This document shows positions 14,478-41,298 of a DNA stretch of 41,298 nucleotides, one piece after another. The notes under the pieces are model-generated. The model made no database searches, was not told the origin of the DNA, and saw only the letters and a program-made list of their open reading frames with translations. Source of the stretch: an uncultured Clostridia bacterium (GTDB taxonomy: Bacteria > Bacillota > Clostridia > Oscillospirales > CAG-272); assembly GCA_947643245.1 (NCBI GenBank), contig CANRVI010000002.1:1-41298 (forward strand), written 5' to 3'. The stretch's first letter is position 1. Each line of letters starts with the position of its first letter. The translations under genes and the position numbers were made by a program.

Positions 14478-14483
14478 GATATA

Positions 14484-23097: not shown

Positions 23098-24714
23098 ATG
23101 AAACGAAAACATTTGGCTCCCGTAGTCCTTCTGCTGTATTTATGCAGTCTTTTCCTGTGGAGCGGTTGTACGATTCAAGCAGAATACTTGATCGGAGACG
23201 TAAACGGAGATGGAATTGTAGACATGCGGGATGCATGTGCTCTGCATCGATACTTGTCCGGCCGATTCACTCCTATCTCTGCGAAAAACGCAGATTTAAG
23301 CTTTGACGGAGCAATTACAGATATAGATGCCGAGGTTCTGCGCCAGTATCTTGCAGGAATCAGTAATCCAGGCACCCGGTACGCTGCTATCACCATTAAT
23401 GGCGTGGAACTGAATGCATATCAGATCGTAGTATCCAAAAGCGACGGAGACTTTTCCTATTGGGCGGCAGATCAGCTTAGCGATACATTGGAAAACTTCT
23501 GCGGTGTGCGTCTGCCCATTGTTACAGACGATAAAGCGGAAACGGAATATGAGATTCTCATCGGTAATACGAATCTGATAGTCACTGAGGACAGCGCAGA
23601 GTTTCCCGCATTATCCTATATGATCTATGCAGAGGATACCAAAATTGTACTTTTAGGGCCCAATTTTATGGTTGGCGGCGGTGTGGGGTTTCTTACACAT
23701 GAACTGCTGCGCAGCAGTGATGCCTGGAACACACAAGTCGATATTACCATTCCCACAGAGAAACAAATACAAAAATACCATCCGCAAGCCGCGCAAAGCG
23801 TCATTCTAATCATTGGAGACGGCATGGGGCAAAACCATATCCAAATGGCCTGCGATCCAGAAGCGTACGTGCGAGACGAGGAGGGAATGGAAATGCCCGC
23901 TTCCAAAGAGGCTATCGAAACCTTTTGGGCGGCGCAGTTCCCGGTAGCGGGAACTGCTGCCACAAATAATATACTTGGTGGGGTGACAGACTCATCCGCA
24001 TCGGCTACAGCGTTGGCTACCGGTTGGAAAACCCGCAACGGCGTAATCGGTATGCGTCCAAATGCATTTTTAGGCGGCGAAACCGAGTCCCTACGTTCTG
24101 TACAAAATGTGCGGGAGCTTGCTTCCCTTTCCGGGAAAACCACGGCAATTCTTTCTACAGACAGAATTACCGGAGCGACCCCCAACAGTTTTTTGGTACA
24201 TCACAGCTACCGGTTTGATTACAATATTATAGAACAGCAGCAAGAGGCTCTTTCGGAAAGCGAGCTTGCATGTGATTTCCTTTGGTGCAGCTACGACGAC
24301 AATGCATTTTTGAGCCAGTTGCAGAAAGCCCTTCATGCAGCAGCCTCCAACAATAGCGGCTTTTTTCTAATGGCAGAGGAAGCCATGATAGACAAATATG
24401 CCACCAAGCTGGACTACAACGAAACCATTCGTACCGTTTCCAGGCTGAACGACTGTGTCGCCTATGCGGCTCTTACAGCAGTCTGTCATCCGGATATTGC
24501 TGTAATTGTGACTGCGGATCATGAAACCGGAGGTCTGACTGTTTCAGAGGATGGGGTCTATACCTGGACCTCTGACGGGGAGCACACGGGTACACCTGTA
24601 CCGGTATATGCAATTGGCGCTGGTACTGAAATGTTTCACAGTACCCTTGTAGAAAATACGGATATTGCCAAATACATTGCGTCTGTATTTGGTGCCTCCT
24701 CTTTTGGAGGATAG
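23098..24714 (+). CDS. Secreted or lipid-anchored alkaline phosphatase with an N-terminal dockerin and an intervening alpha/beta module
   Basis: Signal peptide MKRKHLAPVVLLLYLCSLFLWSGC. Dockerin duplicate DVNGDGIVDMRD / DLSFDGAITDID. PhoA-family blocks ILIIGDGMGQNH, VTDSSASATALATG (Ser nucleophile), GATP, EEAMIDK, VTADHETGG, EHTGTPVPVYA. No SD upstream of either candidate start (TTG 23083 or ATG 23098). Confidence 0.75.
   Translation: MKRKHLAPVVLLLYLCSLFLWSGCTIQAEYLIGDVNGDGIVDMRDACALHRYLSGRFTPISAKNADLSFDGAITDIDAEVLRQYLAGISNPGTRYAAITINGVELNAYQIVVSKSDGDFSYWAADQLSDTLENFCGVRLPIVTDDKAETEYEILIGNTNLIVTEDSAEFPALSYMIYAEDTKIVLLGPNFMVGGGVGFLTHELLRSSDAWNTQVDITIPTEKQIQKYHPQAAQSVILIIGDGMGQNHIQMACDPEAYVRDEEGMEMPASKEAIETFWAAQFPVAGTAATNNILGGVTDSSASATALATGWKTRNGVIGMRPNAFLGGETESLRSVQNVRELASLSGKTTAILSTDRITGATPNSFLVHHSYRFDYNIIEQQQEALSESELACDFLWCSYDDNAFLSQLQKALHAAASNNSGFFLMAEEAMIDKYATKLDYNETIRTVSRLNDCVAYAALTAVCHPDIAVIVTADHETGGLTVSEDGVYTWTSDGEHTGTPVPVYAIGAGTEMFHSTLVENTDIAKYIASVFGASSFGG
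23194..23358 (+). other. Dockerin type-I-like module (two EF-hand-like Ca loops plus helices)
   Basis: GDVNGDGIVDMRDACALHRYLSG...NADLSFDGAITDIDAEVLRQYLAG. Confidence 0.75.
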
Positions 24715-24759
24715 AAAAAACGGAGCTTAAACAGTTACACTGCTTAAGCTCCGTTTTTT
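24715..24759. terminator. Bidirectional rho-independent terminator
   Basis: 10-bp stem CGGAGCTTAA (24721-24730) with TTAAGCTCCG (24744-24753), flanked by A6 and T6. Confidence 0.85.
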
Positions 24760-24762
24760 AAG

Positions 24763-25200
24763 TTACCCGTGAGCGTTTTCATAAGCCTGTCTGATACTCT
24801 CCGGCATATCCTCCGGCTGCATAGACTGCAGACGTGCTTCATTTCCCTCTCGAATCGCCTCTTCATAATACCAGCACTTATAGGAAAGCATGTCCAACAC
24901 ACGGTTCATACGTTCTATCTCCGCTTCTACGCTGGCTTTTTGCTTAAGAAAAAGCTCCCTGCGCAGGGCATATGTCTGCGGGCCCTGTGCACACCACTCC
25001 ATAAATTGCTTAATTTCTTTGATCTCCATACCTGATTTTTTCAGACACTCAATTACCCGAATTGCCTCTATTTCCTTTTCATCAAACTGACGAACCCCGG
25101 AAACCCGTTTGATGTTCGGAAATAATCCCTCTTTGTCGTAATAACGCAAAGTGGAAACAGGCAATCCAAACAGCTGCGATACTTGACCGATAGTATACAT
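24763..25200 (-). CDS. MerR-family transcriptional regulator, NmlR/AdhR-like (single conserved Cys52)
   Basis: MYTIGQVSQLFGLPVSTLRYYDKEGLF is a MerR HTH. A coiled-coil dimerisation helix follows. Cys at position 52 (VIECLKKSGM). No metal-binding Cys cluster. Confidence 0.85.
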   Translation of the reverse strand: MYTIGQVSQLFGLPVSTLRYYDKEGLFPNIKRVSGVRQFDEKEIEAIRVIECLKKSGMEIKEIKQFMEWCAQGPQTYALRRELFLKQKASVEAEIERMNRVLDMLSYKCWYYEEAIREGNEARLQSMQPEDMPESIRQAYENAHG

Positions 25201-25242
25201 GATGCACCCTTTTCATTTTTTAAAAAAATTTTCAAAAAGGTA

Positions 25243-25273
25243 TTGACCTAAAGTTAAGTTTAGGGTTTATACT
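25243..25273 (+). promoter_or_regulatory. MerR-type promoter/operator (19-bp spacer with a central palindrome)
   Basis: TTGACC (25243-25248), 19-bp spacer, TATACT (25268-25273). The spacer holds the 18-bp near-palindrome CCTAAAGTTAAGTTTAGG (25247-25264, 8 of 9 pairs). Confidence 0.65.
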
Positions 25274-25326
25274 AATTGTATCAAAGAAAAGCTACCCTGT
25301 CAATCATATTTTACGGAGGCTTAAAA

Positions 25327-25869
25327 ATGGCAAAAAACGTTTTGATTATCAGTACCAGTTTGCGCAGCAGGAGCAATTCGGAAGCTCTTGCAGATGCTTT
25401 TCTTGCAGGGGCAAAAGCCGCGGGAAACACTGTAGAAAAAGTTACGCTGCAGCAAAAAAATCTATTCTTTTGTAAGGGCTGTCTGGCCTGTCAAAAGCAA
25501 AAAACATGCGTAATACAGGATGATGCTGGAGAAATTGTAGAAAAAATGCGGAAGGCGGATATAATCGCTTTTGCAACCCCCATTTATTATTATGAAATGA
25601 GCGGCCAGATGAAAACATTGCTGGACCGGGCAAATTCACTGTATTCCTCTGATTACGCATTTCAAGATATTTATATGCTCACAGCGGCGGCGGAAGATGA
25701 ATCCCATGTACCGGAGCGGGCAATTAGTGGGCTGCAGGGATGGATCGACTGTTTTGAAAAGGCTGCACTTGCCGGCACGGTATTTGCTGGCGGAGTAAAC
25801 GCCCCTGGAACAATTGATGGTCATCCGGCATTAGAAAAAGCGTACACCATGGGAATTACAATTCAATAA
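25327..25869 (+). CDS. Flavodoxin-like NAD(P)H-dependent FMN reductase family protein
   Basis: MAKNVLIISTSLRSRSNSEALA, ADIIAFATPIYYYEMSGQMKTLLDR and a CKGCLAC segment are typical of NADPH-dependent FMN reductase / iron-sulfur flavoprotein relatives. GGAGG SD before ATG 25327. Confidence 0.8.
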   Translation: MAKNVLIISTSLRSRSNSEALADAFLAGAKAAGNTVEKVTLQQKNLFFCKGCLACQKQKTCVIQDDAGEIVEKMRKADIIAFATPIYYYEMSGQMKTLLDRANSLYSSDYAFQDIYMLTAAAEDESHVPERAISGLQGWIDCFEKAALAGTVFAGGVNAPGTIDGHPALEKAYTMGITIQ

Positions 25870-25883
25870 AGGAGGCTTTTGAT

Positions 25884-26858
25884 ATGAAAGAAAATTTAAT
25901 TTTAGACAAAGAATGGGACAAAACATTTCCTCAAAGTGACAAGGTACACCATAGAAAGATTACGTTTCACAATCGGTATGGTATCACCTTGGCTGCCGAT
26001 TTGTATAAACCTAAAAAGTCGTCTAAAGAAAAACTGCCCGCCCTTGCAGTTTGCGGTCCATTCGGCGCTGTAAAGGAGCAGGCCGCCGGTTTATACGCAC
26101 AAGCAATGGCCGAGAGAGGATTTATTACAATTGCCTTTGATCCCTCTTTTATAGGAGAAAGCGGAGGGAGTCCCCGCTATGTTGCCTCTCCGGATATCAA
26201 TACAGAAGACTTCCAGGCCGCTGTAGACTTTCTGTCCGTCCAGGATACGGTGAACCCAGAAAAAATCGGTGTTCTTGGTATTTGCGGATGGGGCGGCATG
26301 GCACTGAATGCAGCTGCAACCGATACACGGATTCGGGCGACCGTGGCTGTAACTATGTATGACATGACCCGTGTAAATGCAAAAGGATATTTTGATGCGG
26401 AAGACAGTGCGGATATGCGCTATGAAAAACGCAAAGCTTTAAATGCACAGAGAACCGTAGATTACAGAAATGGAAGCTATGCAAGAGCGGGAGGAGTTGT
26501 AAACCCGCTGCCTGCAGATGCGCCTTTCTTCGTAAAGGATTATTACAATTATTATAAAACAAATCGTGGGTATCATAAAAGATCTCTTAACTCCAACGAG
26601 GGCTGGAATACAACATCTGCCCTGTCCTTTTTAAACATGCCTATTTTGCAGTACAGCAGTGAAATACGTAGTGCCGTACTACTTGTGCACGGAGAAAAGG
26701 CGCATTCCTGCTATTTCAGCAAGGACGCTTTTGAAAAGCTGACAGGAGATAATAAAAAGCTATTGATTGTTCCAGGGGCTGTGCATACAGATTTATACGA
26801 TAATACAGACATGATCCCCTTTGATACAATTACAGACTTTTTGATAGAACATATGTAA
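25884..26858 (+). CDS. Alpha/beta hydrolase with a Gly-x-Cys-x-Gly nucleophile elbow (dienelactone-hydrolase-like)
   Basis: Overall alpha/beta hydrolase layout. The elbow reads GVLGICGWGG (Cys where Ser is usual). C-terminal LLIVPGAVHTDLYD is a plausible catalytic His block. AAAGGAGG SD upstream. Confidence 0.7.
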   Translation: MKENLILDKEWDKTFPQSDKVHHRKITFHNRYGITLAADLYKPKKSSKEKLPALAVCGPFGAVKEQAAGLYAQAMAERGFITIAFDPSFIGESGGSPRYVASPDINTEDFQAAVDFLSVQDTVNPEKIGVLGICGWGGMALNAAATDTRIRATVAVTMYDMTRVNAKGYFDAEDSADMRYEKRKALNAQRTVDYRNGSYARAGGVVNPLPADAPFFVKDYYNYYKTNRGYHKRSLNSNEGWNTTSALSFLNMPILQYSSEIRSAVLLVHGEKAHSCYFSKDAFEKLTGDNKKLLIVPGAVHTDLYDNTDMIPFDTITDFLIEHM

Positions 26859-26874
26859 TGGCGGAAAAAGGAAT

Positions 26875-26906
26875 AAAAAGGGACAGCTTTTCTGCTGTCC
26901 CTTTTT
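26875..26906. terminator. Bidirectional rho-independent terminator
   Basis: GGGACAGC (26880-26887), 6-nt loop, GCTGTCCC (26894-26901), flanked by A5 and T5. Confidence 0.8.
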
Positions 26907-26927
26907 CCCTGCTTAGCCTTCAAGTAT

Positions 26928-27770
26928 TTAGTCTGCTTTTCCGTCTGAGCCGCAAAGCTGTATCTTGTGCTTACAAAGTGCAATTACAGCCTCTCTTGCC
27001 GGACCCATATATTTCTTAGGATCAATCATCCCTGCATCCTCCAAAGCGCTGCGCACTGCTTTTGTCGCTGCTGCACGCAGTTCTGTTGCAAAGTTTACTT
27101 TGTTGATTCCCAGTTCAATGGTACGGCGGATCATTTCGTCGGGAATGCCGGAACCTCCGTGCAGCACTAGAGGTGCATCGATTTTATCCCGCAGAGTCGC
27201 CAAAAGTTCAAAGTTCAGCTTCGGCTCTCCCTTATAGAAGCCATGAGCTGTCCCGATAGCAACAGCAAAAATATCCACGCCGGTACGGGTAAAGAAATCC
27301 ACTGCTTCTGCCGGATCGGTATATGCAATGTCTGCACTGCGTCCGTCTTCCTTGCCGCCTACTGTACCCAGTTCTGCCTCTACAGTAACACCACGGGCAG
27401 CAGCCATCTCCACTACCTTGCGGGTAAGTGTGATATTCTCTTCATAGGGCAGCTTGGAACCGTCGATCATTACGGAAGTGTATCCCTCCTGCACAGCATC
27501 CCGCACGCCCTCGAAGCTTTCACAGTGATCCAGATGAAGCGCTACCGGTACATCGGCAGCCTCTCCTTCAGCACGTACCATCGCCACTGCCTGACGCAGA
27601 GTAAGGTATTTTACTGTGGTAGGTGTAGTCTGAATCATCACAGGAGAGCGCATTTGACTGGCTGCTGCAACAATCGCCTGCACCATCTCCAGATTTTCTG
27701 CATTGAATGCAGGCACTGCATATCCCCCTGCACGGGCCTTTTGAATCATTTCTTTGCTTGTCGTATACAT
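26928..27770 (-). CDS. Class II ketose-bisphosphate aldolase family protein (FBA/TBP aldolase-like)
   Basis: GGYAVPAFNAENLEMVQA, the Zn-site block VALHLDHC, and LVLHGGSGIP. Confidence 0.85.
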   Translation of the reverse strand: MYTTSKEMIQKARAGGYAVPAFNAENLEMVQAIVAAASQMRSPVMIQTTPTTVKYLTLRQAVAMVRAEGEAADVPVALHLDHCESFEGVRDAVQEGYTSVMIDGSKLPYEENITLTRKVVEMAAARGVTVEAELGTVGGKEDGRSADIAYTDPAEAVDFFTRTGVDIFAVAIGTAHGFYKGEPKLNFELLATLRDKIDAPLVLHGGSGIPDEMIRRTIELGINKVNFATELRAAATKAVRSALEDAGMIDPKKYMGPAREAVIALCKHKIQLCGSDGKAD

Positions 27771-27851
27771 GTTTTTGGTACTCTATACCTTTCTTTGATT
27801 TTATGATAATTTCAGCATGGCTAAATACGGTATGCCTATACCGGCCAATGG

Positions 27852-28799
27852 TTATTCTAAAATATTGTCCGCAATCATTTTTTCTACGTTTTCCCGGGAA
27901 ATATCTCCTTCCATTGGACCAAAGGCAGCCGTATTAAGTGAGGCGGCAGCCGTAGCCATTTTGGCTGCGTCTTCAATGGACTTTCCCTCCAACAGAGCGC
28001 ATAGAAACGCACCGTCAAAACTGTCACCCGCTCCAGTAGCATCCAGCACGGGCACAGCATATACGCCAAATGCAAACTGTTTTTCCCTAGTATATATGAC
28101 GCATCCCTTTTTCCCATTTTTCAGCGCAATAATTTCCAAAGCAGGATGCACCCGAAATAGTTCCTGTACCGCTTCTTCAATATCCTGGCATCCGGAAAGC
28201 ATACGCAGTTCGCTTTTACCAGGCAGGAATACATTGGTCTGTTCCAATACCGCTGCAATAAGCTCCTTTGCCTCTGGGTCCTTCATCAGTTCCGGACGGA
28301 CATTGGGATCAAAGGATATCCTTGCGCCGGCAGCCTTAGCTGCCCGCATGGTTTCCACGATCCGGTGACCAAAAGCCATATCTGCCATAAGGGAACAGCC
28401 CATAATATGGAAAAATCCAAGACCTGCCAGCTTCTCCATTGATGGGGCAGGCGCCAGCACAGCAGGGGTGTTTCCAATATGAAAAATAAATTTTCTTTCT
28501 CCATCGGAGAAATATGTAACAAAGGCACATCCGGTGGAAATCCGATCATTTTTGATCACGGAAGAGCAGTCAACTCCATCTCCTTCCAGACGCTCCAAAA
28601 GACACTTTCCAAAATCATCGTCGCCTACACCGCCTACGATTGCGGCTCCATGACCCAACCGGGCTACTGTATCGATAAAAATAGCTGGTGCTCCAGAGGG
28701 ATATGGTCCACGGAACACGCCTGCCTTATCCAAGGGCTGATCCACACCGTCCCGCATGATCTCGACGATGATCTCCCCCATGGTCATAATTTCTGCCAT
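27852..28799 (-). CDS. PfkB-family sugar kinase
   Basis: MTMGEIIVEIM start, GGVGDDDFG, and the C-terminal anion-hole motif VLDATGAGDSFDGAF. Confidence 0.85.
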   Translation of the reverse strand: MAEIMTMGEIIVEIMRDGVDQPLDKAGVFRGPYPSGAPAIFIDTVARLGHGAAIVGGVGDDDFGKCLLERLEGDGVDCSSVIKNDRISTGCAFVTYFSDGERKFIFHIGNTPAVLAPAPSMEKLAGLGFFHIMGCSLMADMAFGHRIVETMRAAKAAGARISFDPNVRPELMKDPEAKELIAAVLEQTNVFLPGKSELRMLSGCQDIEEAVQELFRVHPALEIIALKNGKKGCVIYTREKQFAFGVYAVPVLDATGAGDSFDGAFLCALLEGKSIEDAAKMATAAASLNTAAFGPMEGDISRENVEKMIADNILE

Positions 28800-28827
28800 T
28801 GGTTTCTATCCTTTCTGCGCTCGCTGT

Positions 28828-29697
28828 TTAAGCGCCGACAAACTGTTTTTTTAAGAACACCAGAGAGTCTGCGATCATTTTGTCCATGCCCGCTTCATCT
28901 GCGCCGCCAGACAGGTCACGCCATACCTTAATGTCGCTGCCAACGGTGCCGCCGGATTTCATGAAGGGTTCCATAACAACCATCTTGTCATAGCCGATAT
29001 CACGCAGCGCCTGACCAATTTCGGCCCAGGGCAAGTGCCCCATGCCAGGCAATTTCCGGTTGCCCTCTCCCACATGTACATGGGCAAGAAGATTTCCAGC
29101 TTTTCGAATCGCACCAGGCAAATCATCTTCTTCAATATTCATATGGAAAGTATCTAAAAGAAGTTTTACTGAATTGCGGCCCACATCTTTGCAGAAGCGG
29201 ATGCCCTCTTCGCAATCAGTAAGCAGGATCGTTTCAAACCGGTTAAGAATCTCCAGACAGATGGTAATACCAAGGCGGTCTGCCTCATCTCCCACTTCCT
29301 GCATACCTTTAACTGCACGGTCCCACAGCGCATCTTTATCCAAATCCTTGAAATCATAGGGCCAGCAATTATACAGAGCACCGATCAAAGTATTACAGTC
29401 AATTTTAACCATCTGATGCATAATATCTACCAAAAACTGAACGCCGGCCTCACGAATTGCAGGATCTGCAGAAGATACGTCCTTATCTCTGGGAGGTCCA
29501 AGATTTGCGGAAATCTCCAGTCCCAGCTCTTTTGTTACGGTTCTCAGTTCGGCAAGCTGTGCGTCACTCATATTTACCAGATCACCGCCGCCAATTTCAA
29601 TAACATCAAAACCGGCTTTTTTCGCTTTTCTAGCCATTTCGCAGTAGTCTGCGCCCCAATTGCTTACCCAATAAGCATACAGTGTTCCAAATTTCAT
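28828..29697 (-). CDS. Ketose 3-epimerase (D-psicose/D-tagatose 3-epimerase family, TIM barrel)
   Basis: MKFGTLYAYW...AGFDVIEIGG, plus the four metal-ligand blocks of DPEase/DTEase: CLEILNRFE, LLDTFHMNIEE, HVHVGEGNRKLPG, VVMEPF. Close by eye to my recollection of Clostridium cellulolyticum DPEase. Confidence 0.85.
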   Translation of the reverse strand: MKFGTLYAYWVSNWGADYCEMARKAKKAGFDVIEIGGGDLVNMSDAQLAELRTVTKELGLEISANLGPPRDKDVSSADPAIREAGVQFLVDIMHQMVKIDCNTLIGALYNCWPYDFKDLDKDALWDRAVKGMQEVGDEADRLGITICLEILNRFETILLTDCEEGIRFCKDVGRNSVKLLLDTFHMNIEEDDLPGAIRKAGNLLAHVHVGEGNRKLPGMGHLPWAEIGQALRDIGYDKMVVMEPFMKSGGTVGSDIKVWRDLSGGADEAGMDKMIADSLVFLKKQFVGA

Positions 29698-29726
29698 TGT
29701 ATAATCCTTTCTTTCTTATATAATCT

Positions 29727-31766
29727 TTATCGTTGTCCATCAATCCCATACACAAACTGCATAGGGCTGACAGCAAGAGAAAAAGCTTTTTCAAGGCCGG
29801 TCTGGTTATATGTCACCGGAATACCAAGTTCGTTCACCATATCATACCATGTCCGGTATCCAGCCGCATAGGCTTCGCGCTGCGCTTCTGTACCATTTTT
29901 ATACTGATCCTCATATGTAGCGCTGTACCCCAAAAACAGCATATGTACCGACAAACGCCGGACATTTTCCCGCTCCCAGTCTGTCTCACAGGCTGACATA
30001 GCCTTTGCAAACAGTTCCTGCATCGTATCAAAGTGGGCTGCAAAATAGCTTTTTGAATAGATGTCAAAAGGATATTCATAGTCGTTGAGAACACAGCCCA
30101 TTTCGTCTCCAGCCTGGATGAGCATTTGAATATATGTATATATATGCGACCAGCCCGGTCCGTAATATGCTCGTAAATATTCTTCCATACGCAGGATGTA
30201 TTCTTCCTCTACCATACCGCCGTCCCACATAAGCTCAGAAAGAAGATATGCGTCCAGTCCCTCAAAAGAACTGCCGGCCGTGCCGACTACATAAAAACCG
30301 GTGGCTTTATGTTCCATAAACCAGACAAAGTCATTATATAGATTGGCAAGATTAGGCTGCGGACACAGCAAATAATAAATGTTTGTAGGATAGTACCAAA
30401 TATAAGTCTGCGAACAGTGCTCTGTCCATCCAAGATAATAGGCTTCTTCCTTGATATTGGAGTAGCCTAGACCGTTACCGCCCGCTTCACATTCCCCGCT
30501 GCCTATAGGATGGTTTGCACATCCATTCCAACAATACAGCAGTACGACTTCCTCATTCAGTACTGCATCTCTTGGCGGAATACGCACATCTCCATAGGCG
30601 TTGGTAATTACCCGAATGCCTGGGTACTCCTGGCGCAAGGCATCGTCAATTCGATTTACAAAGGGCACCAATACACCGGCCTGGCTTCCCTCTGCCTGAT
30701 AGGTAGCGCTGCACTCTGCACACACGCAAAATCGCCCCTCAGCAGAATAGGCACAGGAAATTTCTGTAATATCCTTCCCTACAACACCTCCGGCGGCAAT
30801 CCGCTCATCCAATAACTTTTTCATATTAAAAAGGCAGGTTTCATAAGAGGTTTCTGATGACAGACAAGGCACAGCTGCATCTGGAATAAAGTAGTCCAGG
30901 GAATGTGCGTTCAAAAACAGACGCTGAATTCCGTATCCATACTCTGGACGTAGCATACTGGATTGGGCGCTGCATCCGCTAAGCTTGCGTTTAATTACGG
31001 AAGAATATGTATAATCATTTTTAAAAGGATCGATGGTTACACAGCGATATCGTACCGAAGGAACCTGTTCGTCACGCATTCCATTTGGCAGATCCACCGT
31101 TTGGGCTGTATACAGCACTTTGTCGTCATACCCTAAAAATCGGTAGCCAACATATTCCTCCAACAGTTCGTATACACCATACATCACGCCTCTTGCAGCG
31201 CCGCCCATTATAGTCAGTATTCCATCAGAAACAGAAATGGAAAATCCGTCGTCTCCTAAATTGCGGGATCCGTCATCGGCGCATAGTACAATTTGATAGG
31301 GAGCAGAGGAGGTGCCCGCAGCAATGGGAAGTGTTCTGCCGCAGGCTTCCTTTACATATTTTTGCAGTTCCTGGGCTGCAAACACAATATTAGCGTTGTC
31401 GGGGTCTGCTGCCAAAATGGTATATTTCCCGATATTTTTTCCCGCAATAGTGATAGTTCCAACATTGGTATCGGGCACGGGATATTTTTCCGTTATATCA
31501 ATTGCTCCAGCCAAATGCAGTTTGAGCATCAAGCTATCCATCGCAAGTACCTCACCGTCTCCATCCACATCGGCAAGATCCAGTTCAATCCAATCAATTG
31601 CATTGGCAAGATATTTCATCAATTCCAAAGCGTCCAAAGGTGTCAATTCACCATCTTCGTCAATATCCCCCCGCACAAAGGATGCCGCACCAGCCGGCAC
31701 GGCAACAACAACAGCTGAGAGGAGCATGGAAAGAACCAGGAGAGCAGAAATCAGCTTTTTTTTCAT
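29727..31766 (-). CDS. Secreted dockerin-containing DUF4838-like protein (putative glycoside hydrolase-like)
   Basis: Signal peptide MKKKLISALLVLSMLLSAVVVAVPAGAA. Dockerin DIDEDGELTPLD / DVDGDGEVLAMD. Then a large domain with a CAYSAEGRFCVCAECSATYQAEGSQAGVLVPFVNRI block that I associate with DUF4838. The family assignment is from memory. Confidence 0.6.
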   Translation of the reverse strand: MKKKLISALLVLSMLLSAVVVAVPAGAASFVRGDIDEDGELTPLDALELMKYLANAIDWIELDLADVDGDGEVLAMDSLMLKLHLAGAIDITEKYPVPDTNVGTITIAGKNIGKYTILAADPDNANIVFAAQELQKYVKEACGRTLPIAAGTSSAPYQIVLCADDGSRNLGDDGFSISVSDGILTIMGGAARGVMYGVYELLEEYVGYRFLGYDDKVLYTAQTVDLPNGMRDEQVPSVRYRCVTIDPFKNDYTYSSVIKRKLSGCSAQSSMLRPEYGYGIQRLFLNAHSLDYFIPDAAVPCLSSETSYETCLFNMKKLLDERIAAGGVVGKDITEISCAYSAEGRFCVCAECSATYQAEGSQAGVLVPFVNRIDDALRQEYPGIRVITNAYGDVRIPPRDAVLNEEVVLLYCWNGCANHPIGSGECEAGGNGLGYSNIKEEAYYLGWTEHCSQTYIWYYPTNIYYLLCPQPNLANLYNDFVWFMEHKATGFYVVGTAGSSFEGLDAYLLSELMWDGGMVEEEYILRMEEYLRAYYGPGWSHIYTYIQMLIQAGDEMGCVLNDYEYPFDIYSKSYFAAHFDTMQELFAKAMSACETDWERENVRRLSVHMLFLGYSATYEDQYKNGTEAQREAYAAGYRTWYDMVNELGIPVTYNQTGLEKAFSLAVSPMQFVYGIDGQR
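31506..31670 (-). other. Dockerin type-I-like module
   Basis: GDIDEDGELTPLDALELMKYLAN...LADVDGDGEVLAMDSLMLKLHLAG. Confidence 0.75.
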
Positions 31767-31955: not shown

Positions 31956-31985
31956 TTGACAAGCATACGCATATTTTGTTATAAT
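31956..31985 (+). promoter_or_regulatory. Candidate sigma-A promoter (extended -10)
   Basis: TTGACA (31956-31961), 18 bp, TGtTATAAT (31977-31985). Confidence 0.55.
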
Positions 31986-32760: not shown

Positions 32761-32773
32761 ATTTATTTAAATA

Positions 32774-32805
32774 AAAAGCGCCCCGCTACGGTGGGACGCT
32801 TTTTA
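32774..32805. terminator. Bidirectional terminator-like hairpin (one bulge)
   Basis: AAAAAGCGCCCC..GGTGGGACGCTTTTT, with A- and T-runs on either side, between convergent genes. Confidence 0.6.
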
Positions 32806-32845
32806 TTTATTGAACAGGTTCATAGGATCCACAAAACTGCGAATT

Positions 32846-34018: not shown

Positions 34019-34029
34019 ATATTTACGCC

Positions 34030-34557
34030 TTACTTAAATGCAAAATGCTCCAGCACCAGATCCAGTTCATCCAAATGATCCTCATAATACTTCGGGGTGG
34101 AAGTGTAGGTAATATAATATACATAGTTTTCTCGTACAGCAGCAACAATTATATATTGATATTCCTTTTCGTTCAGCGTTGCATCAAATGCATATTTCAT
34201 TCCATCGACGCCGCCTAATACCGTCTTTTCTTCCGCGGTCACTTCCATTTCTTCATAGATACTTGCAAACTGTTCCGCATAGCTTTCCCACCAAGAAGAA
34301 ACAGTATCGTCCGTCATATTCATGCCGAATGCTGTAACGGATATGCTGGTGGCATCTCCGGATGAAAAGTAGGCAGCGGCGTAAAGTGAGGATTTATCCA
34401 CGCGCCAACCTTCCGGTACGTAAAACAGATAATCCGCATCTTCCGATGAGGCAAGCTGCATACCAGCGGGAACACTCGAATCCTGTTTTTCACACCCACC
34501 CAGAACCATACTTAGGGCAAGCAGAAGCGTCACCAGAAAAAATCCTGTTTTCTTCAT
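34030..34557 (-). CDS. Hypothetical lipoprotein
   Basis: MKKTGFFLVTLLLALSMVLGGC has a lipobox (LGGC). GGAGG SD before ATG 34557. I recognise no domain with confidence. Confidence 0.6.
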   Translation of the reverse strand: MKKTGFFLVTLLLALSMVLGGCEKQDSSVPAGMQLASSEDADYLFYVPEGWRVDKSSLYAAAYFSSGDATSISVTAFGMNMTDDTVSSWWESYAEQFASIYEEMEVTAEEKTVLGGVDGMKYAFDATLNEKEYQYIIVAAVRENYVYYITYTSTPKYYEDHLDELDLVLEHFAFK

Positions 34558-34601
34558 CGTTATATCCTTACCTCCTTTGGATTCAAGCAAACTGCCCCCA
34601 C

Positions 34602-35846: not shown

Positions 35847-35897
35847 TATTATATCTTCCCTTCATTTTCGTTTTTTACTTCTTATAATAATACCTTT

Positions 35898-35926
35898 ATT
35901 ATACAGGATGTACTATCGCTTTGCAA
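35898..35926 (-). promoter_or_regulatory. Candidate glyA promoter
   Basis: Minus strand reads TTGCAA (35921-35926), 17 bp, TATAAT (35898-35903). Confidence 0.5.
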
Positions 35927-35959
35927 CAGAATTTTATGAACATCAGAAGGATTTTGCAC

Positions 35960-35995
35960 AAAAAAAGCCGCAGGTTTTTACCCGCGGCTTTTTAT
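35960..35995 (-). terminator. Rho-independent terminator of the cohesin-repeat protein gene
   Basis: AGCCGCAGG (35966-35974) pairs with CCCGCGGCT (35981-35989) with one mismatch. Flanked by A- and T-runs. Confidence 0.75.
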
Positions 35996-36004
35996 TCTAA
36001 AAAT

Positions 36005-38359
36005 TTATACCGTTTCCTTCTTCTTACGAATCAGGACAACTGCTGTACATGCTGCAGCTGCAACTGCTGCTGCAATAAAGATATACATCATGTTGTCGCC
36101 AGTCTGCGGAGGCTTTTTATTATCCCCTGCAGAAGCAGTGGTATCCTCTCCTTCGGGAGCAGTCGTTACAGGAGGTTCCGGTTCCGGATCTGTTCCGTTT
36201 TTGTCAGCCTCATATGCTTTATACAGGGCAAGATATGTTTCATATGCCTCTGCAGCACCAAGCTTAAATTGTGCTAATTCAACGGGAGACAATCCGCCAA
36301 TTGTAGCAATAATTTCTTCCAAAGCTGCTTTGTCAGCGTCTGTCATATCTTCATATGCCGGCAATGCAAGAATTTTTTCTTCCAAGCTAGCCAACAGTTC
36401 ATAATCTACATCTTCTGTGCCAAGAATTTCAACATACTTTGCAACGAGATCATAAAAAGTTTCCGGATAATTCAACGCAATATAATCAGAGTTTATGGAA
36501 TCCTCTTCTTCCATAAGTACGAGAGAATACAACAACTCGATTACCTGTGCTTTTTCTTCTGCTGTCGCTGTATCAGAAGCCAACAGTTTTTCTGCAGCTT
36601 CTAAAAATGCGTTTACTTGATCCATGTCTACTGTATCAGTACCGCCATAAACCAGTTTAAAGAATGCATTCACAAAGTTATCATATGCTTCGGGAACATC
36701 CTGTTTGAGCTGCGGAGCAAAGAAACTGCCCAATATGATCTCATACAGTTCTGTTACTTCATCCAGAGAGTCTTCTGTAATCTCTTCATAATCAGGAAGT
36801 GCTTCCAGACGCGCTATCAGCTCTTTTACCATCATATCCTGCTGATATAGCACATAGTTTGCCGCCAGTGCTGTGAGCGCATCTCCATAATTGTCCAACA
36901 AATACTGCTGGTCTGCAGTGTCTTCAATTGTTTTCATCAATGCTACCAGTTCCAGCATTTCTTCAACCTGGTCTTCTGTCATATCATAGTAGCTTGCAGG
37001 AAGTGCAATAATTCTTGCAGCCAATGCATCCAGTTCCTGTACGCGTGTATATCTGGCATAAGACTCCTGGAGTCTGGTGTAAGCATCGCTGTAATTTTCT
37101 TTAATATAGTTTACGTCTGCTTCAGGCATAGCATCAAGCTGTTCAACCAGTGCAAGCATCTCTTCAATCTGTGCTGCACTCATCTCTGCATATGCAGGCA
37201 GTGCTTCTACTTTTGCACCTACGGCTTTCAGATCCTCAATATGTGCATAAGCAGCCAAAGAAGCTTCAAATCTTGCATAGTCGTCTGCAAAAGTGTTTTT
37301 CACATAGGCCAAATCATCAGCAGCCAGGGCTTCCAGTTCTTCCTGCAAAGCCAGCATTTCAGTGATCTGTGCCTCAGTCATCTGGTCAAAATCCGGCAGG
37401 GCAGCCAATTTCGCGCCATATGCTTTCAATCCTTCCTCGTGCATAAATGCTTCATAGGAAGCTTCCAGGCGTGCAATTGCATCTGCATATGTAGTTTCCA
37501 CATATGTTTTTGCTTCACCTTCCAACGCAGCAAGCTCTGTGCGCAGCGTGAGCATTTCCTGAACCTGTGTTTCGCTCATCTCTGCATATGCAGGCAGCGC
37601 TTCTACTCTTGCACCCAACGCATCCAGTTTTACTTTTTCCTGCGCCCACAAATGTGCAGCATATAATCCATCAATCTTCTCAATTGCATCTGCATGGCTC
37701 TCTGCAAAGTAAGCCGCTGCTCTACCTTCCAGTGCATGAACATCTTCATAAAGGGCCAGCATAGCGGTGATCTGCTCGTCCGTCAATTCGTCATATTCGC
37801 CCAGTGCCAGCACATCAGCTGCCAGTTGATCCAATTCAGTTGTATCAATGGGAACATACTGCGGACACTCGTTGATAATCTCCATTGTGTGCGGAACTTT
37901 AGTTCCATCGTCTGTTACACCAAAAACTTCTTTGGGGTTAATAGACAGATTCACATTGAAGTCTGCATCCTGGTTAAGGATTTCAAAAGTGTAAACAGCA
38001 ACAACACCACTATTTGTATTGTTTACATTATAAGAAACAGACTGCGCATAATATGTTACAGGATTGCTGTTGATATTACCAGCAAGGTATTCCTGTGCAG
38101 ACCACACATCCTTGTTTTCAATGGATGTGAGCTTTAATGCGCTTGCATTGTAACCAACAAAGGTTCTGTAGCACCACAGGCCAGGGTTATTGCCCAGTGT
38201 TACCGTCATAGTCAACGTAGTTTTGTCGTCGCTGATTTCTCCTGTAATATGGGTATATAGATCCGAGTCAGGAAGATCAGCGGCCGTTCCCGGAACAACA
38301 GCTACAAGTCCGGCAACAAGCATTGCTGCAACAACCAGCAATGAAATAAGCTTTTTCAT
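36005..38359 (-). CDS. Sortase-anchored surface protein: signal peptide, cohesin-like module, ~8 helical 66-aa repeats, Pro/Thr linker, PPQTG sorting signal
   Basis: Start set to ATG 38359 (MKKLISLLVVAAMLVAGLVAVVPGTA) because it has a GGAGG SD, and a consensus promoter (38394-38422) occupies the longer tracked ORF. C-terminus: KKPPQTGDN, then a hydrophobic stretch (MMYIFIAAAVAAAACTAVVLI), then RKKKETV. Confidence 0.75.
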   Translation of the reverse strand: MKKLISLLVVAAMLVAGLVAVVPGTAADLPDSDLYTHITGEISDDKTTLTMTVTLGNNPGLWCYRTFVGYNASALKLTSIENKDVWSAQEYLAGNINSNPVTYYAQSVSYNVNNTNSGVVAVYTFEILNQDADFNVNLSINPKEVFGVTDDGTKVPHTMEIINECPQYVPIDTTELDQLAADVLALGEYDELTDEQITAMLALYEDVHALEGRAAAYFAESHADAIEKIDGLYAAHLWAQEKVKLDALGARVEALPAYAEMSETQVQEMLTLRTELAALEGEAKTYVETTYADAIARLEASYEAFMHEEGLKAYGAKLAALPDFDQMTEAQITEMLALQEELEALAADDLAYVKNTFADDYARFEASLAAYAHIEDLKAVGAKVEALPAYAEMSAAQIEEMLALVEQLDAMPEADVNYIKENYSDAYTRLQESYARYTRVQELDALAARIIALPASYYDMTEDQVEEMLELVALMKTIEDTADQQYLLDNYGDALTALAANYVLYQQDMMVKELIARLEALPDYEEITEDSLDEVTELYEIILGSFFAPQLKQDVPEAYDNFVNAFFKLVYGGTDTVDMDQVNAFLEAAEKLLASDTATAEEKAQVIELLYSLVLMEEEDSINSDYIALNYPETFYDLVAKYVEILGTEDVDYELLASLEEKILALPAYEDMTDADKAALEEIIATIGGLSPVELAQFKLGAAEAYETYLALYKAYEADKNGTDPEPEPPVTTAPEGEDTTASAGDNKKPPQTGDNMMYIFIAAAVAAAACTAVVLIRKKKETV
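36008..36112 (-). other. Cell-wall sorting signal (PPQTG, TM segment, basic tail)
   Basis: PPQTG (36098-36112) fits the (S/P)PxTG variant of LPxTG reported for clostridial sortase substrates. It is followed by a 21-aa hydrophobic segment and RKKKETV. Confidence 0.7.
36203..37840 (-). repeat. Tandem coding repeats, ~198 nt (66 aa) period, about 8 copies, diverged
   Basis: The anchor motif A-L-P/G-x-[YF]-x-[EDQ]-[ML]-[TS] recurs at tracked-ORF residues 206, 275, 341, 407, 473, 541 and 686, giving spacings of 69, 66, 66, 66, 68 and 145. A 41-nt segment is 39/41 identical at 37179-37219 and 37575-37615, an offset of 396 nt. Confidence 0.8.
37853..38275 (-). other. Cohesin-like beta-sandwich module (tentative)
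   Basis: LTMTVTLGNNPGLWCYRTFVGYNASALKLTSIENKD...GVVAVYTFEILNQD follows the pattern (V.V.L.NNPG....F.V.Y....L.L) that I associate with cohesin domains of Clostridia. Not verified by HMM. Confidence 0.5.
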
Positions 38360-38393
38360 CTGGATTTTACCTCCAAGTTTTTGATACATTTTT

Positions 38394-38422
38394 ATTATAG
38401 TTGTTTGCAGTCTGAATGTCAA
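38394..38422 (-). promoter_or_regulatory. Consensus sigma-A promoter of the cohesin-repeat protein gene
   Basis: Minus strand reads TTGACA (38417-38422), 17 bp, TATAAT (38394-38399). Confidence 0.6.
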
Positions 38423-38524
38423 GTCATTTTTCTTTTATTTCATTGAAAAATACAAGCATATTTTATAATATTTTGACTTTTTGTCCATTATTTTTTATTG
38501 TTTCCTACAATAGTTATTGAACGT

Positions 38525-38556
38525 AAAAAAGCCTCCACAAATGTGGAGGCTTTTTT
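38525..38556. terminator. Rho-independent terminator after the multi-LamG dockerin gene
   Basis: GCCTCCAC (38531-38538), loop AAAT, GTGGAGGC (38543-38550), flanked by A6 and T6. Confidence 0.85.
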
Positions 38557-38575
38557 CCTACTAAGCTTGTATAAC

Positions 38576-41298
38576 TTAGGCATTTTCCTCTGCAAGATGT
38601 TTTCTGATACGGAGCTGGTCTTTTGCATCAATAGAACCATCAAAGTTCACATCTGCTCTAGACTTAGCAGTAAATCCGTCTTCATCAATAATCTTTGCAA
38701 GATACTGTCTCATAAGAGCAGCATCGGATACAGTGATATCGTTGTCGCCATCTACGTCGCCATTCCAATCCTTGTTCCAGGAGAAGTCACGGCTACCTAT
38801 ATGGAAATCATCCATATCAAATGCTATACCATAGTTCCAGAAGTAGAAAGCATCAATCGCATCAGATCCATATTTGCACTGTGCCCAAGCGTCACGAGGT
38901 GCCATTTCTACAACCTTCACACCATTTACATACAAAGCAAATTCAGAATTCAGTATTCCTTCAGCCGCATCTTCAGGTGTATAGCTTCTTACCTCAAAGT
39001 TGTATTTTTCACCAGGAACCAGCTTAATCTTAGAACTGTCGGTACGCTTGAAAGCGTTATTATAACCTCTGATAAAGAATACTTCATTATCAGCATCGTA
39101 ACCAACCTGTGCCTGACCCAGCGCCTGTTTACCGACATTGAGAGCAAACACGTGACCATAGGACTCAGTTGCCCCAGTATCATAAGTATTGTTGAAAATG
39201 AAATCAAATCCAATGGTAAAGCCGTTATTATTCAGATCAGAACCATTGCGGTTTGTTCCCAGCTTAATACGGTTGTAGTTGCCGTCGCTATCGGTATATC
39301 TAGCAACACCATCTTCAAAGATAAAGGAAACTTCTTCCTTACTGGATGTAATCTGCATAAAGTCATCTGTAAAGTCATGGAAGAATGTCAGCACACCAGT
39401 GTAAGCCTCAACTTCAGGAAGAAATGCAAATCTCTTCTCTGTGCAACCACTGCTTGTTTTACATGTGGTGTAAATAATCTTGTTGCCTTCATCATTTTCT
39501 TCAACACGAGTGAAGTCATAGTCATAGTAGCTATGCTGCAGCTTTGCTACTTCTTTTTTGTCTTCAGTGCCGCCGCAAATATAACATGTATAGGTGTTTG
39601 TACCTTCATCATAGCACTTAGGCTCTGTTGTTCTTGCCCATCTGTACACATGGCCGTTTGCGTTGCAGAAGTCTTCTCCGGTTGCTTTTACATCGTCAAC
39701 CTTTGTATAGTAATCTTCTCCATCACCAATTTCAAATCCATCGGTCTTCTTTGTAAACTCTGCATCATAAATTTTATAGTTATTAATAACAGCAGTACCG
39801 TTATTCATATATAAAATGTTAATTCCATCAAAGAACTGCATGCCTGTATTAGCAGTGTAAACTTCTTCCTGGTCAATATACAGTGTTACACTACCGTATG
39901 CAACAAGAATTGCTACATTATGAAATTTACCAGCCGTCCAAGGAGCCATATTTTTTACAGCTTCAGGAGCACCTGTAGCATCTTCGCCATAGTACCACAG
40001 GTCTTTGCCCTTACCTACAAATTTATCACCAAATTTCACACGGCTATTATCACCGTCTCCCATTTTATTGACAATAAATTCGATCCATGTACCATTGTTG
40101 TACTTGTCGCTGAAGTTCGTAATATTTTCCTGGTCAGGATACAATGCCACGTCAAAAATCACAGCGTAGCTGGCAGCAGTGTAAGCGTTATCCTGGGTGA
40201 GGTATGCAGAGTTCGGTGTTTTCGGATTGGGATTCTTGTCGCTATTAAATCCACTCCGCAGAACAAAGCCTTCACCTCCTACGGTATCAGCGGTAATATG
40301 ATCAAAAAGGTTGATCTCAGGAACTTTATATTCGCCCTGTACCAGACCGTCGCCAGTAAAGGAACCTGCCCAGTCATCACCCTCAAAATCAATTACAGCA
40401 GCATTACCTACTTTAAGGTTATCCATAGCCAGGCCTTCAGCGGTGAAGGTAAAGCCAGTATCTGTAAGAGAAGCACCAGACAGCACAGGGAAATCGTTGC
40501 TTCCAGTTACTTCTACACCGTTTACGAAAATTTGTGTTTTTGTTGTGCCAACAGCATACTCTACATAATACCATTCGTCAGTCTTAAAGGTATAAGCAGC
40601 AGTTTCGCTTCCTACACCAATTGCATCACTGGTGATGGAAATGCCGTCGCCGTTAGATGTCAGTGCTTTTGTTGCATCGCCTGTAAAGCTGATATCAAAG
40701 CCAATTGCATAGGTGCCGTCTTCATTTTTCCAGTTATCACCCGCATTTACAGTGGTAGCAGCCGCTACTTCAGCAGATACCGCATGCTTCAAGCCCAGAC
40801 CACGTCTGTATTCAATACCAGTAATCTTATCGCCGCTAGCCTGCCCTGAGCCCTTCTCTGTTCCATCAAAATCACGTGAAAACTGCGTATCGTTACCATC
40901 GCTCATTGTGATGTTGTCCATAGCGACATTCAAACCGCCGCTAAATAAGGTTTTGATGTGGGGAAGCTGACCGTCTACCGTACCAATCTTCACATCGTTG
41001 ACGAAAATGTCCGTCTTACCTGCTTCAGCGCCGCCGGTTCTTATTTTAATGGAATACTTTGTGTTGATATCAAACGCATAAGGAATCGTTTTGTTTTCCT
41101 TATTTAGCTTGATACCGATTTCTGAAGAAGTAACATACCATCTGTCGTCACTACCATAAGTAGAGTCAGAACCGAGGAATCCATCTTCTGTCAGGAACCA
41201 CAAATCAAAGTGGAAATTGCGGTTCGCGGCAGAAAGACTACCGATCTCCAAATATGTTACTTTTGCAGCAGTCGATCCAAAGGGAACCGTATACACAT
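38576..41298 (-). CDS. Large secreted multi-LamG/concanavalin-like protein with a 4-Cys insert and C-terminal dockerin; 5' end outside the window
   Basis: The ORF is open to the window edge (more than 906 aa). At least four jelly-roll-like units end in the LamG-style strand (DIFVNDVKIG, QIFVNGVEVTG, TLYIDQEEVY, ALYVNGVKVV). C-terminal dockerin DVDGDNDITVSD / DVNFDGSIDAKD. Confidence 0.7.
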   Translation of the reverse strand, partial: VYTVPFGSTAAKVTYLEIGSLSAANRNFHFDLWFLTEDGFLGSDSTYGSDDRWYVTSSEIGIKLNKENKTIPYAFDINTKYSIKIRTGGAEAGKTDIFVNDVKIGTVDGQLPHIKTLFSGGLNVAMDNITMSDGNDTQFSRDFDGTEKGSGQASGDKITGIEYRRGLGLKHAVSAEVAAATTVNAGDNWKNEDGTYAIGFDISFTGDATKALTSNGDGISITSDAIGVGSETAAYTFKTDEWYYVEYAVGTTKTQIFVNGVEVTGSNDFPVLSGASLTDTGFTFTAEGLAMDNLKVGNAAVIDFEGDDWAGSFTGDGLVQGEYKVPEINLFDHITADTVGGEGFVLRSGFNSDKNPNPKTPNSAYLTQDNAYTAASYAVIFDVALYPDQENITNFSDKYNNGTWIEFIVNKMGDGDNSRVKFGDKFVGKGKDLWYYGEDATGAPEAVKNMAPWTAGKFHNVAILVAYGSVTLYIDQEEVYTANTGMQFFDGINILYMNNGTAVINNYKIYDAEFTKKTDGFEIGDGEDYYTKVDDVKATGEDFCNANGHVYRWARTTEPKCYDEGTNTYTCYICGGTEDKKEVAKLQHSYYDYDFTRVEENDEGNKIIYTTCKTSSGCTEKRFAFLPEVEAYTGVLTFFHDFTDDFMQITSSKEEVSFIFEDGVARYTDSDGNYNRIKLGTNRNGSDLNNNGFTIGFDFIFNNTYDTGATESYGHVFALNVGKQALGQAQVGYDADNEVFFIRGYNNAFKRTDSSKIKLVPGEKYNFEVRSYTPEDAAEGILNSEFALYVNGVKVVEMAPRDAWAQCKYGSDAIDAFYFWNYGIAFDMDDFHIGSRDFSWNKDWNGDVDGDNDITVSDAALMRQYLAKIIDEDGFTAKSRADVNFDGSIDAKDQLRIRKHLAEENA
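38597..38767 (-). other. Dockerin type-I-like module (C-terminal)
   Basis: NGDVDGDNDITVSDAALMRQYLAK...RADVNFDGSIDAKDQLRIRKHL. Confidence 0.75.

Follow-up and report, generated by a model that had tools for sequence, protein, structure and literature searches.

A single-cohesin scaffoldin with a predicted helical stalk and its candidate dockerin partners in an uncultured Clostridia bacterium

Overview of the locus

The interaction of cohesin and dockerin modules is best known from cellulosomes, and the amylosome and the mucinolysome illustrate that gut Clostridia reuse it for other substrates. We analyzed a cohesin–dockerin locus of an uncultured Clostridia bacterium located on a metagenomic contig (CANRVI010000002.1) whose entire length of 41,298 bp is referred to here as the window (GC content ~46%). 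Four proteins are of interest. Three of them carry a dockerin, namely an alkaline phosphatase (designated A), a DUF4838 protein (B) and a protein with laminin G (LamG)-like modules (D), and the fourth combines a cohesin with a sortase sorting signal (C). The positions of their genes, modules and transcription signals are shown in Table 1. Domain scans detected no glycoside hydrolase (GH) domain of families GH5, GH9, GH10, GH11, GH48 or GH13 on any of the four proteins, which agrees with the original prediction, made from the DNA letters, that they would lack cellulase, xylanase and amylase domains. Loci and proteins from other genomes are denoted by L and P numbers, respectively.

Table 1 Genes, modules and transcription signals of proteins A–D in the window.
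Feature	Position	Strand	Remarks
Protein A gene	23098-24714 (alternative start 23083)	+	538 aa
Lipobox cysteine Cys24 of A	23167-23169	+	lipobox FLWSG-C24, 9 residues ahead of the dockerin
Dockerin of A	23194-23355	+	N-terminal
GH20b-like domain of A	23380-23742	+	
Alkaline phosphatase domain of A	23770-24708	+	PF00245, 126 bits, E 2.5e-36
Nucleophile motif DSSASAT of A	23989-24009	+	
Protein B gene	29727-31766	-	679 aa
DUF4838 (PF16126) domain of B	30132-31109	-	108.1 bits, E 6.6e-31
GH20b/GH67N-like domain of B	31164-31397	-	Glyco_hydro_67N, 29.8 bits
Dockerin of B	31506-31670	-	N-terminal
Protein C gene	36005-38359	-	784 aa
Sorting motif PPQTG of C	36098-36112	-	followed by a hydrophobic helix and the tail RKKKETV; whole linker and signal region 36008-36199
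Pro/Thr/Glu linker of C	36113-36199	-	disordered, roughly 30 residues
Helical stalk of C	36200-37846	-	residues 172-720, about 550 residues
Cohesin of C	37853-38275	-	residues 29-169, type-I-like beta-sandwich
Promoter of C (TTGACA, 17-nt spacer, TATAAT)	38394-38422	-	12/12 matches to the sigma-70 consensus
Intrinsic terminator past the D stop codon	38525-38556	-	GC-rich hairpin, then T-run
Protein D gene	38576-41296	-	>906 aa, 5' end past the contig/window end
Dockerin of D	38594-38761	-	C-terminal

Cohesin module of protein C

Protein C consists of a signal peptide, a cohesin, a helical repeat stalk, a linker rich in Pro, Thr and Glu, and a sortase sorting signal. When searched with its own sequence, the cohesin module gave no match to the Pfam cohesin model (PF00963) at E ≤ 10 and only a sub-threshold match to DUF2141, and a phmmer search of this single sequence against the PDB yielded nothing beyond noise, with hits to cyanovirin and a phage tail tip protein. 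Its identity as a cohesin stands despite the Pfam failure because of indirect but strong support from a homologue match, a comparison of the family profile with the PDB, and the predicted structure. A word-indexed homologue search found only three close relatives, and an exhaustive phmmer search found 364. A homologue with 65% identity (P0002) scored 32.3 bits on PF00963 (cut-off, 24.1 bits), and a second homologue (P0001) scored 21.9 bits. Eight of the ten top phmmer relatives that were scanned matched PF00963, several of them with 3–7 cohesin copies, and two small dockerin-bearing proteins were also among the top relatives. A profile built from 48 sequences of the family gave 32 matches in the PDB, all of which are cohesins, with ScaB (4ums_A) as the best one (E = 1.9e-12).

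The AlphaFold2 model of the module (predicted local distance difference test score, pLDDT, of 96.1) has 10 strand elements and agrees with the nine-stranded flattened β-sandwich (jelly-roll) fold of cohesins. The best 50 matches in a Foldseek search of the PDB were all cohesins (E values down to 1.3e-7; template modelling scores around 0.6–0.66, within a span of 0.5–0.72), including the Archaeoglobus fulgidus cohesin (2xdh) and 2jh2. Type I modules ranked first, and the type III cohesin of ScaE (2zf9) appeared only in 48th place. Judged by its family profile and its predicted fold, the module is a real cohesin. The original prediction had called it cohesin-like and had named failure in both a cohesin profile and a structure comparison, together with binding to none of the dockerins, as grounds for giving the idea up; the family profile and the structure comparison both returned cohesins. 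A six-frame scan of the window with cohesin hidden Markov models (HMMs) found no second cohesin, the single module being that of C.

Sorting signal and stalk of protein C

The C-terminal sorting signal of C scores above the cut-offs of both Gram_pos_anchor (PF00746; 26.8 bits, cut-off 20) and TIGR01167 (20.8 bits, cut-off 15.9), as expected from the earlier proposal of a sortase signal on this protein. The motif PPQTG is non-canonical, and its counterparts are PVQTG in L002 and L008 and TPQTG in L003. The QTG-D core, the hydrophobic helix and the tail RKKKETV are kept in all C orthologues. Sortase SrtB of Clostridioides difficile processes (S/P)PxTG and NVQTG motifs (PMC4155245, PMC5118464), and the motifs of the C orthologues resemble these substrates. 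With an N-terminal signal peptide, exactly one cohesin and no catalytic module, C has, as read from its sequence, the architecture of a sortase-anchored monovalent scaffoldin of the ScaE, Sca2 or cSca5 type.

It is conceivable that C escapes sortase processing and is held in the membrane by its C-terminal hydrophobic helix, in which case the stalk would cross the cell wall and not extend beyond it. The non-canonical motif, with valine at position 2 in L002 and L008, is compatible with such a topology, as is the finding that no sortase gene is present in the 41-kb window or in the fetched flanks, including those of L001. We nevertheless regard it as improbable, given that the tripartite signal passes two curated models, that its core, helix and tail are maintained across the orthologues, and that comparable motifs are genuinely processed by SrtB of C. 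difficile (PMC4155245, PMC5118464).

The full-length AlphaFold2 model of C (mean pLDDT of 83.7, mostly >85 across residues 30–590) comprises the cohesin at residues 35–164, an all-helical region at residues 174–720, a disordered linker, and a C-terminal hydrophobic helix; pLDDT values are <50 at residues 726–784. The stalk contains about 8 units of ~66 aa with the motif 'L..LGA.VEALP.Y.EMTE.Q..EML.L', and a phmmer self-search delineated five clear and at least two degenerate repeats. Each unit is predicted to form helices of ~16, ~10 and ~30 residues, and a rod shape is likely because the long helices would bridge successive units. The repeats and the confident helix prediction bear out the long helical stalk that had been proposed for this protein. 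The stalk matched no Pfam family above the cut-off (weak sub-threshold matches only) and no PDB sequence, and Foldseek with the full-length model of C returned cohesins only, with no match for the stalk. A homologue search with the stalk repeats returned none, with low-complexity words swamping the candidates. Assignment of the stalk as a FIVAR, GA, DUF1542 or spectrin-type rod was not supported, there being no PDB or Foldseek match; the term "spectrin-like" as used below refers only to the predicted helix pattern.

Dockerin modules of proteins A, B and D

The matches of A, B and D to Pfam Dockerin_1 (PF00404; cut-off, 22.9 bits) span positions 2–56 of the 57-position profile. They cover residues 38–90 of the A open reading frame (52.7 bits, E = 5e-14), residues 33–85 of B (39.4 bits, E = 7e-10) and residues 846–901 of D (41.7 bits, E = 1.4e-10), and each of the modules also matches solved dockerin chains in the PDB. 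All three contain two tandem 12-residue EF-hand-like calcium loops, and a helix with the pattern x-L-x-[RK]-x-[YH]-L-[AS] comes after every loop. The loops are DVNGDGIVDMRD and DLSFDGAITDID in A, DIDEDGELTPLD and DVDGDGEVLAMD in B, and DVDGDNDITVSD and DVNFDGSIDAKD in D. On these sequence grounds, A, B and D carry true type-I dockerins, and their positions agree with those in the original prediction. Generic EF-hand repeats, which had been considered there as an alternative, are ruled out since the dockerin model covers all three modules from one end to the other and solved dockerins are matched as well. Six-frame regular-expression and HMM scans detected no further dockerin signal in the window outside these three proteins.

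Protein D and the conserved D–C gene pair

Protein D comprises several ConA/LamG-like β-sandwich segments, at least three of which are related, followed by a C-terminal domain and the dockerin. The whole protein matches Laminin_G_3 with 31.2 bits (cut-off, 27.6 bits), and hhalign supports homology between segments S1 and S2 (86%, E = 4.8e-6). The full-length orthologue of D in L001 has 953 aa and a signal peptide. Between the β-sandwich modules lies an insert with six cysteines (window about 39450–39670, residues about 543–620; residues 592–666 of the L001 protein) arranged as C-x16-C-x9-C-x2-C ... C-x5-C, which has a zinc-ribbon-like look and no significant Pfam match.

The nearest genome is represented by L001, an uncultured Clostridia metagenome-assembled genome (MAG), with 91.8% nucleotide identity and full synteny across 13.5 kb. 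The C orthologues are 94% identical in L001, 58% in L002 (P0004) and 60–61% in L008, L009 and L007. The latter four loci constitute a second clade, in which C is about 60% and D 47% identical to the proteins of the window. The D gene is located directly upstream of the C gene in four loci of the two clades: the window, L001, L002 (about 71% nucleotide identity) and L008 (61% amino acid identity in C). Moreover, the gene order BacA-HD-D-C-SHMT-lipoprotein-IscS is kept in L002 and L008. Among the genes for the four proteins, only the adjacency of D to C is conserved, and the conserved neighbour, a LamG-type dockerin protein, suggests a role in adhesion and not in catalysis. In L002, an extra gene between D and C (7312–7818) encodes a 168-aa protein with a signal peptide and a cohesin that passes PF00963 and has no anchor; this free cohesin is absent from the window, L001 and L008.

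The start codon of C (ATG at 38359) is preceded by a strong GGAGG ribosome-binding site in addition to the consensus promoter listed in Table 1. The hairpin past the D stop codon was missed by a terminator scanner, and its support comes from RNA folding (−22.1 kcal/mol, z = −4.9; 0 of 200 shuffled sequences were as stable). The start codon of A is located 30 nt past the stop codon of the dac gene. A four-gene operon of A, B, C and D was rejected, with strands, promoter, terminator and synteny all against it; the terminator of D, the promoter of C, and the strand, spacing and synteny of the genes indicate that the four belong to separate transcription units. Accordingly, the 18-kb "set" of the original prediction held as far as its dockerins, cohesin and anchor are concerned, but not as a common unit, there being four separate transcription units with only the D–C adjacency conserved.

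Protein B, a probable glycosidase

Protein B consists of a signal peptide, the N-terminal dockerin, a GH20b/GH67N-like domain, a DUF4838 catalytic-type domain and a C-terminal helical region. DUF4838 (PF16126) provides the catalytic domain of the β-N-acetylglucosaminidase families GH163 and GH185, whose members act on N-glycans and sulfated glycans and are distantly related to GH20 hexosaminidases (PMC10570127). GH163 BT1035 is an endo-β-N-acetylglucosaminidase acting on complex N-glycans, and GH185 Sp_0475 is a 6-sulfo-N-acetylglucosaminidase (PMC10570127). Because of this family membership, B is probably a β-N-acetylglucosaminidase of the GH163/GH185 type, that is, a non-cellulolytic yet glycan-active protein. 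The expression "DUF4838 enzyme" used in the earlier description was correct with respect to the domain but too weak with respect to the function of the family. B has PF16126 in common with BT1035 and Sp_0475, and its catalytic-type domain is preceded by the GH20b/GH67N-like domain. It differs from the two characterized enzymes in its dockerin, which they lack as described in the paper.

The N-terminal layout of B, comprising a signal peptide, a dockerin and a GH20b/GH67N-like α/β domain (31101–31766), is shared by A (23098–23820). The two regions align with 28% identity over 171 aa (E = 2e-15). A hexosaminidase-type accessory domain ahead of a phosphatase, as found in A, is unexpected.

The B gene is followed on the same strand by three genes with gaps of 28–81 nt (window 26928–31766, minus strand; L001 16543–20505). 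They encode a D-psicose 3-epimerase (372 bits, cut-off 300), a tagatose-kinase-like PfkB protein (below the cut-off) and a class II ketose-bisphosphate aldolase, and there is no transporter in this gene string. It may be an operon that joins an extracellular glycosidase to ketohexose catabolism.

Protein A, a predicted lipoprotein with a dockerin and a phosphatase domain

The order of modules in A is a predicted lipoprotein signal, the dockerin, a GH20b-like domain and an alkaline phosphatase domain. The protein matches alkaline phosphatases in the PDB down to E = 7e-23 and contains the motifs GDGMG, DSSASAT, DHETGG and GEHTG, which we take, by analogy with Escherichia coli PhoA, to provide the nucleophile and the metal sites. 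The lipobox cysteine is located 8–12 residues before the dockerin in all A relatives with at least 44% identity (P0154–P0185). Dockerin-phosphatases that are related more remotely begin with ordinary signal peptides, and the relatives without a dockerin include many lipoproteins. Hence, the original designation of A as a secreted phosphatase was right about the phosphatase, whereas "secreted" has to be replaced by predicted lipoprotein with a conserved lipobox cysteine. The combination of dockerin and phosphatase is found in about 38 of the best 120 clusters of A relatives, which are annotated only as "alkaline phosphatase". For display through a cohesin, it is peculiar that the dockerin is located beside a lipid anchor.

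The A gene follows a gene for a PBP5-type D,D-carboxypeptidase (dac) at a distance of 9–30 nt in all loci, i.e., in the window (21757–24714), L003 (8663–11617), L004 (7417–10371), L005 (8682–11611) and L006 (4339–7272). The order metY-metA-ireB-ribF-dac-A is kept in species in which identity of the A protein has fallen to 44%, and these loci contain no cohesin within 10 kb. Since this block is fixed without a cohesin nearby, the nearness of A to C looks like housekeeping synteny, and pairing of A with the cohesin of C is doubtful because A always follows dac, even in distant species. SpoVA genes are present near the dac-A block in two relatives. These positions hint that A may be cotranscribed with dac and linked to the envelope or to sporulation.

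These data bear on the possibility that the co-location of the four proteins is coincidental, in which case the 18-kb "set" would be an accident of housekeeping synteny and the dockerin of A, and possibly that of B, would serve as a calcium-binding stabilizer or bind a ligand other than a cohesin. The position of A after dac regardless of C and the placement of B at the head of its own sugar-catabolism gene string are in line with this idea, and in L003, where the blocks are rearranged, no B-type (DUF4838) gene is present within 10 kb of A. Orphan dockerins are reportedly common in non-cellulolytic genomes, a finding that is attributed to Peer and coworkers in 2009. The same point is echoed elsewhere (PMC13487519). 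On the other hand, both calcium loops and both helices are retained in each of the three dockerins, whose Pfam scores are significant, and a cohesin is present, so that a partner exists in principle. Furthermore, the C-SHMT block abuts the dac-A block in L003, and A and the C orthologue therefore co-occur in another species. Taken together, we consider mere coincidence to be very unlikely.

Proposed arrangement of proteins C and D

We think it probable that C and D constitute a two-gene adhesin or display device built on a single-cohesin, sortase-substrate anchoring scaffoldin of the ScaE/Sca2/cSca5 type. After secretion, the PPQTG signal of C would be cleaved and the protein linked covalently to peptidoglycan. 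The roughly 30-residue Pro/Thr/Glu linker would then cross the wall, and the about 550 residues of three-helix repeat units would form a rod, a few tens of nanometres long if extended, carrying one type-I-like cohesin at its outer tip. In the presence of calcium, the cohesin would hold one secreted protein per stalk through the dockerin of that protein. D, encoded immediately upstream, is the most likely dedicated partner, and D docked on C would be a non-covalently assembled adhesin, like CttA on ScaE in Ruminococcus flavefaciens. B could plausibly be carried instead. Use of the cohesin by A is least likely, because its lipid-anchored dockerin would sit at the membrane and the cohesin at the far end of the stalk. 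As C contains one cohesin, only one dockerin protein could be bound per stalk at a time. The wall-anchored complex of the original prediction, displaying the three proteins together, is not compatible with this single cohesin, which would give either a mixed coat or a dedicated pair.

Several observations weigh against this arrangement. No sortase gene accompanies C in the regions searched, and its cohesin is not recognized by PF00963 from its own sequence. D and C are not co-transcribed, being separated by the terminator past D and the promoter of C. The position of A is set by the dac block independently of C, and its dockerin, at the membrane in the predicted lipoprotein, is far from a cohesin at the rod tip. 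In addition, further cohesins may be encoded outside the window; the related locus L002 has the extra free cohesin between D and C.

The arrangement of C and D resembles that of ScaE and CttA in R. flavefaciens and R. champanellensis, where ScaE is likewise a single-cohesin scaffoldin with a C-terminal LPXTG-type sortase signal (PMC5301203). ScaE of R. flavefaciens binds CttA and ScaB. CttA, encoded in the same locus, is a non-catalytic protein that binds the substrate, bears carbohydrate-binding modules and docks on ScaE through its C-terminal dockerin for cell adhesion (PMC5301203). The cohesin of ScaE accepts other dockerins besides that of CttA. The cttA gene is said to lie directly upstream of scaE, as Rincon and coworkers reportedly observed in 2007. 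We favour the two-gene adhesin because the conserved D–C order mirrors this sca locus of R. flavefaciens. The two systems differ in that the ScaE cohesin is of type III while the best structural matches of the C cohesin are of type I, and in that CttA combines an X-module–dockerin dyad with cellulose-binding modules while D has a plain dockerin and LamG-like modules. Around C, there is no sign of a cellulosome context. A helical repeat stalk is not known from ScaE.

Sca2 of the Ruminococcus bromii amylosome, like C, has one cohesin and a C-terminal sortase signal. It binds dockerins of amylases and also those of non-glycosidase proteins, namely a peptidase and a leucine-rich repeat protein, and thus is a general surface-anchoring post (PMC4611034). 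With 534 aa, Sca2 carries mainly GH13 amylases, whereas the C locus has no amylase and the spacer of C is different and longer. In the mucinolysome of Limousia pullorum, cSca5 has an N-terminal cohesin and a C-terminal LPxTG anchor and is very highly expressed (PMC12997984). It belongs to a gut Clostridia lineage, and the dockerin cargo is, as for C, non-cellulolytic; its high expression parallels the perfect promoter of C. The Limousia system comprises 3–6 scaffoldins and as many as 12 cohesins, together with up to 22 mucin glycosidases that bear dockerins (PMC12997984). In the window, by comparison, one cohesin and three dockerins are visible, there is no multi-cohesin scaffoldin, and the mucin GH families listed for Limousia are missing; that list does not include GH163 or GH185.

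These systems raise the possibility that C is the anchor of a larger non-cellulolytic system, possibly mucinolysome-like, in which its cohesin binds the dockerin of one or more multi-cohesin adaptor scaffoldins encoded elsewhere and A, B and D dock onto those. Such an arrangement is known from R. flavefaciens (ScaE–ScaB) and Limousia (cSca5–cSca1/cSca2), and, orthologues aside, the C cohesin is most closely related to multi-cohesin scaffoldins and to small adaptors that combine a cohesin with a dockerin. The activity of the B family on host-type glycans would fit as well, and our view covers 41 kb of the genome. Conversely, no second cohesin is found in the window, in the L001 flanks or in the loci around A relatives, public data contain very few members of the C-type scaffoldin lineage, and the conserved D–C adjacency favours a direct pair. 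On balance, we regard the larger system as possible though rather doubtful.

Two more far-reaching proposals can be added. In the first, the lectin-like head of D would be docked non-covalently on a new kind of spectrin-like helical rod anchored in the wall, with heads such as B being swappable. In the second, the widespread but so far unremarked lipoprotein dockerin-phosphatases would organize envelope or sporulation-linked functions and not polysaccharide degradation. The latter role is suggested by the location of dockerin-phosphatase genes always just after a D,D-carboxypeptidase gene and often near sporulation genes. We consider these far-reaching proposals unlikely.

The canonical cellulosome is defined by a scaffoldin with two or more cohesins (PMC13487519). 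The window differs from it in having one cohesin, in C only, and in its cargo of a phosphatase, a DUF4838 protein and a LamG-like protein, with no GHs for the plant cell wall. Use of cohesin and dockerin modules outside cellulolysis is already established in Archaeoglobus, Clostridium perfringens, the amylosome and the mucinolysome, and the two modules occur together in about 1.5% of human-gut MAGs (PMC12997984). C is similar to the non-cellulosomal proteins of A. fulgidus and C. perfringens (X82) in its use outside plant cell-wall degradation. However, the cohesins of C. perfringens sit on the enzymes themselves, and most non-cellulosomal examples, unlike C, have no dedicated wall-anchored scaffoldin.

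In this context, the locus is a minimal system. Its unusual points are the monovalent sortase-anchored scaffoldin with a predicted helical rod that lacks detectable relatives outside its own small lineage, the conserved neighbouring LamG-type dockerin protein, and the probable GH163/GH185-type cargo. In addition, it brings to light a conserved family of dockerin-alkaline phosphatases predicted to be lipoproteins. A search of the papers available to us found no description of the helical stalk, the LamG-type partner, a GH163/185-type dockerin enzyme or the lipoprotein dockerin-phosphatase family. If the pairings are true, the locus would provide a simple natural display scaffold with one-to-one stoichiometry, and with their confirmation the cohesin of C could help to find divergent cohesins that are missed by Pfam.

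Other genes and features of the window

Most genes in the window have housekeeping functions. They encode a P-type ATPase, phosphofructokinase, an ABC/FtsX exporter with a two-component system, threonyl-tRNA synthetase (ThrRS), a HemN-like protein, MetY, MetA, RibF, the PBP5-type D,D-carboxypeptidase, SHMT and IscS. A 700-nt non-coding stretch (14023–14730) is located upstream of thrS, where a T-box leader is expected; an Rfam scan of the entire window at gathering thresholds gave no match, including at this site. A 257-aa protein (13249–14022) has no Pfam or NCBIfam match, and the same applies to an apparent lipoprotein of 186 aa (34030–34590; MVLGGC). The latter has a counterpart of similar size (168–176 aa) between SHMT and IscS in L002, L003, L008 and L009.

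The first 2 kb of the window have a GC content of 55.6%, compared with ~46% elsewhere. This region (1–2325) encodes the P-type ATPase, a heavy-metal type in which the HMA metal-binding domain is found at the C-terminus (residues 688–747) and not at the N-terminus. The region may be acquired DNA.

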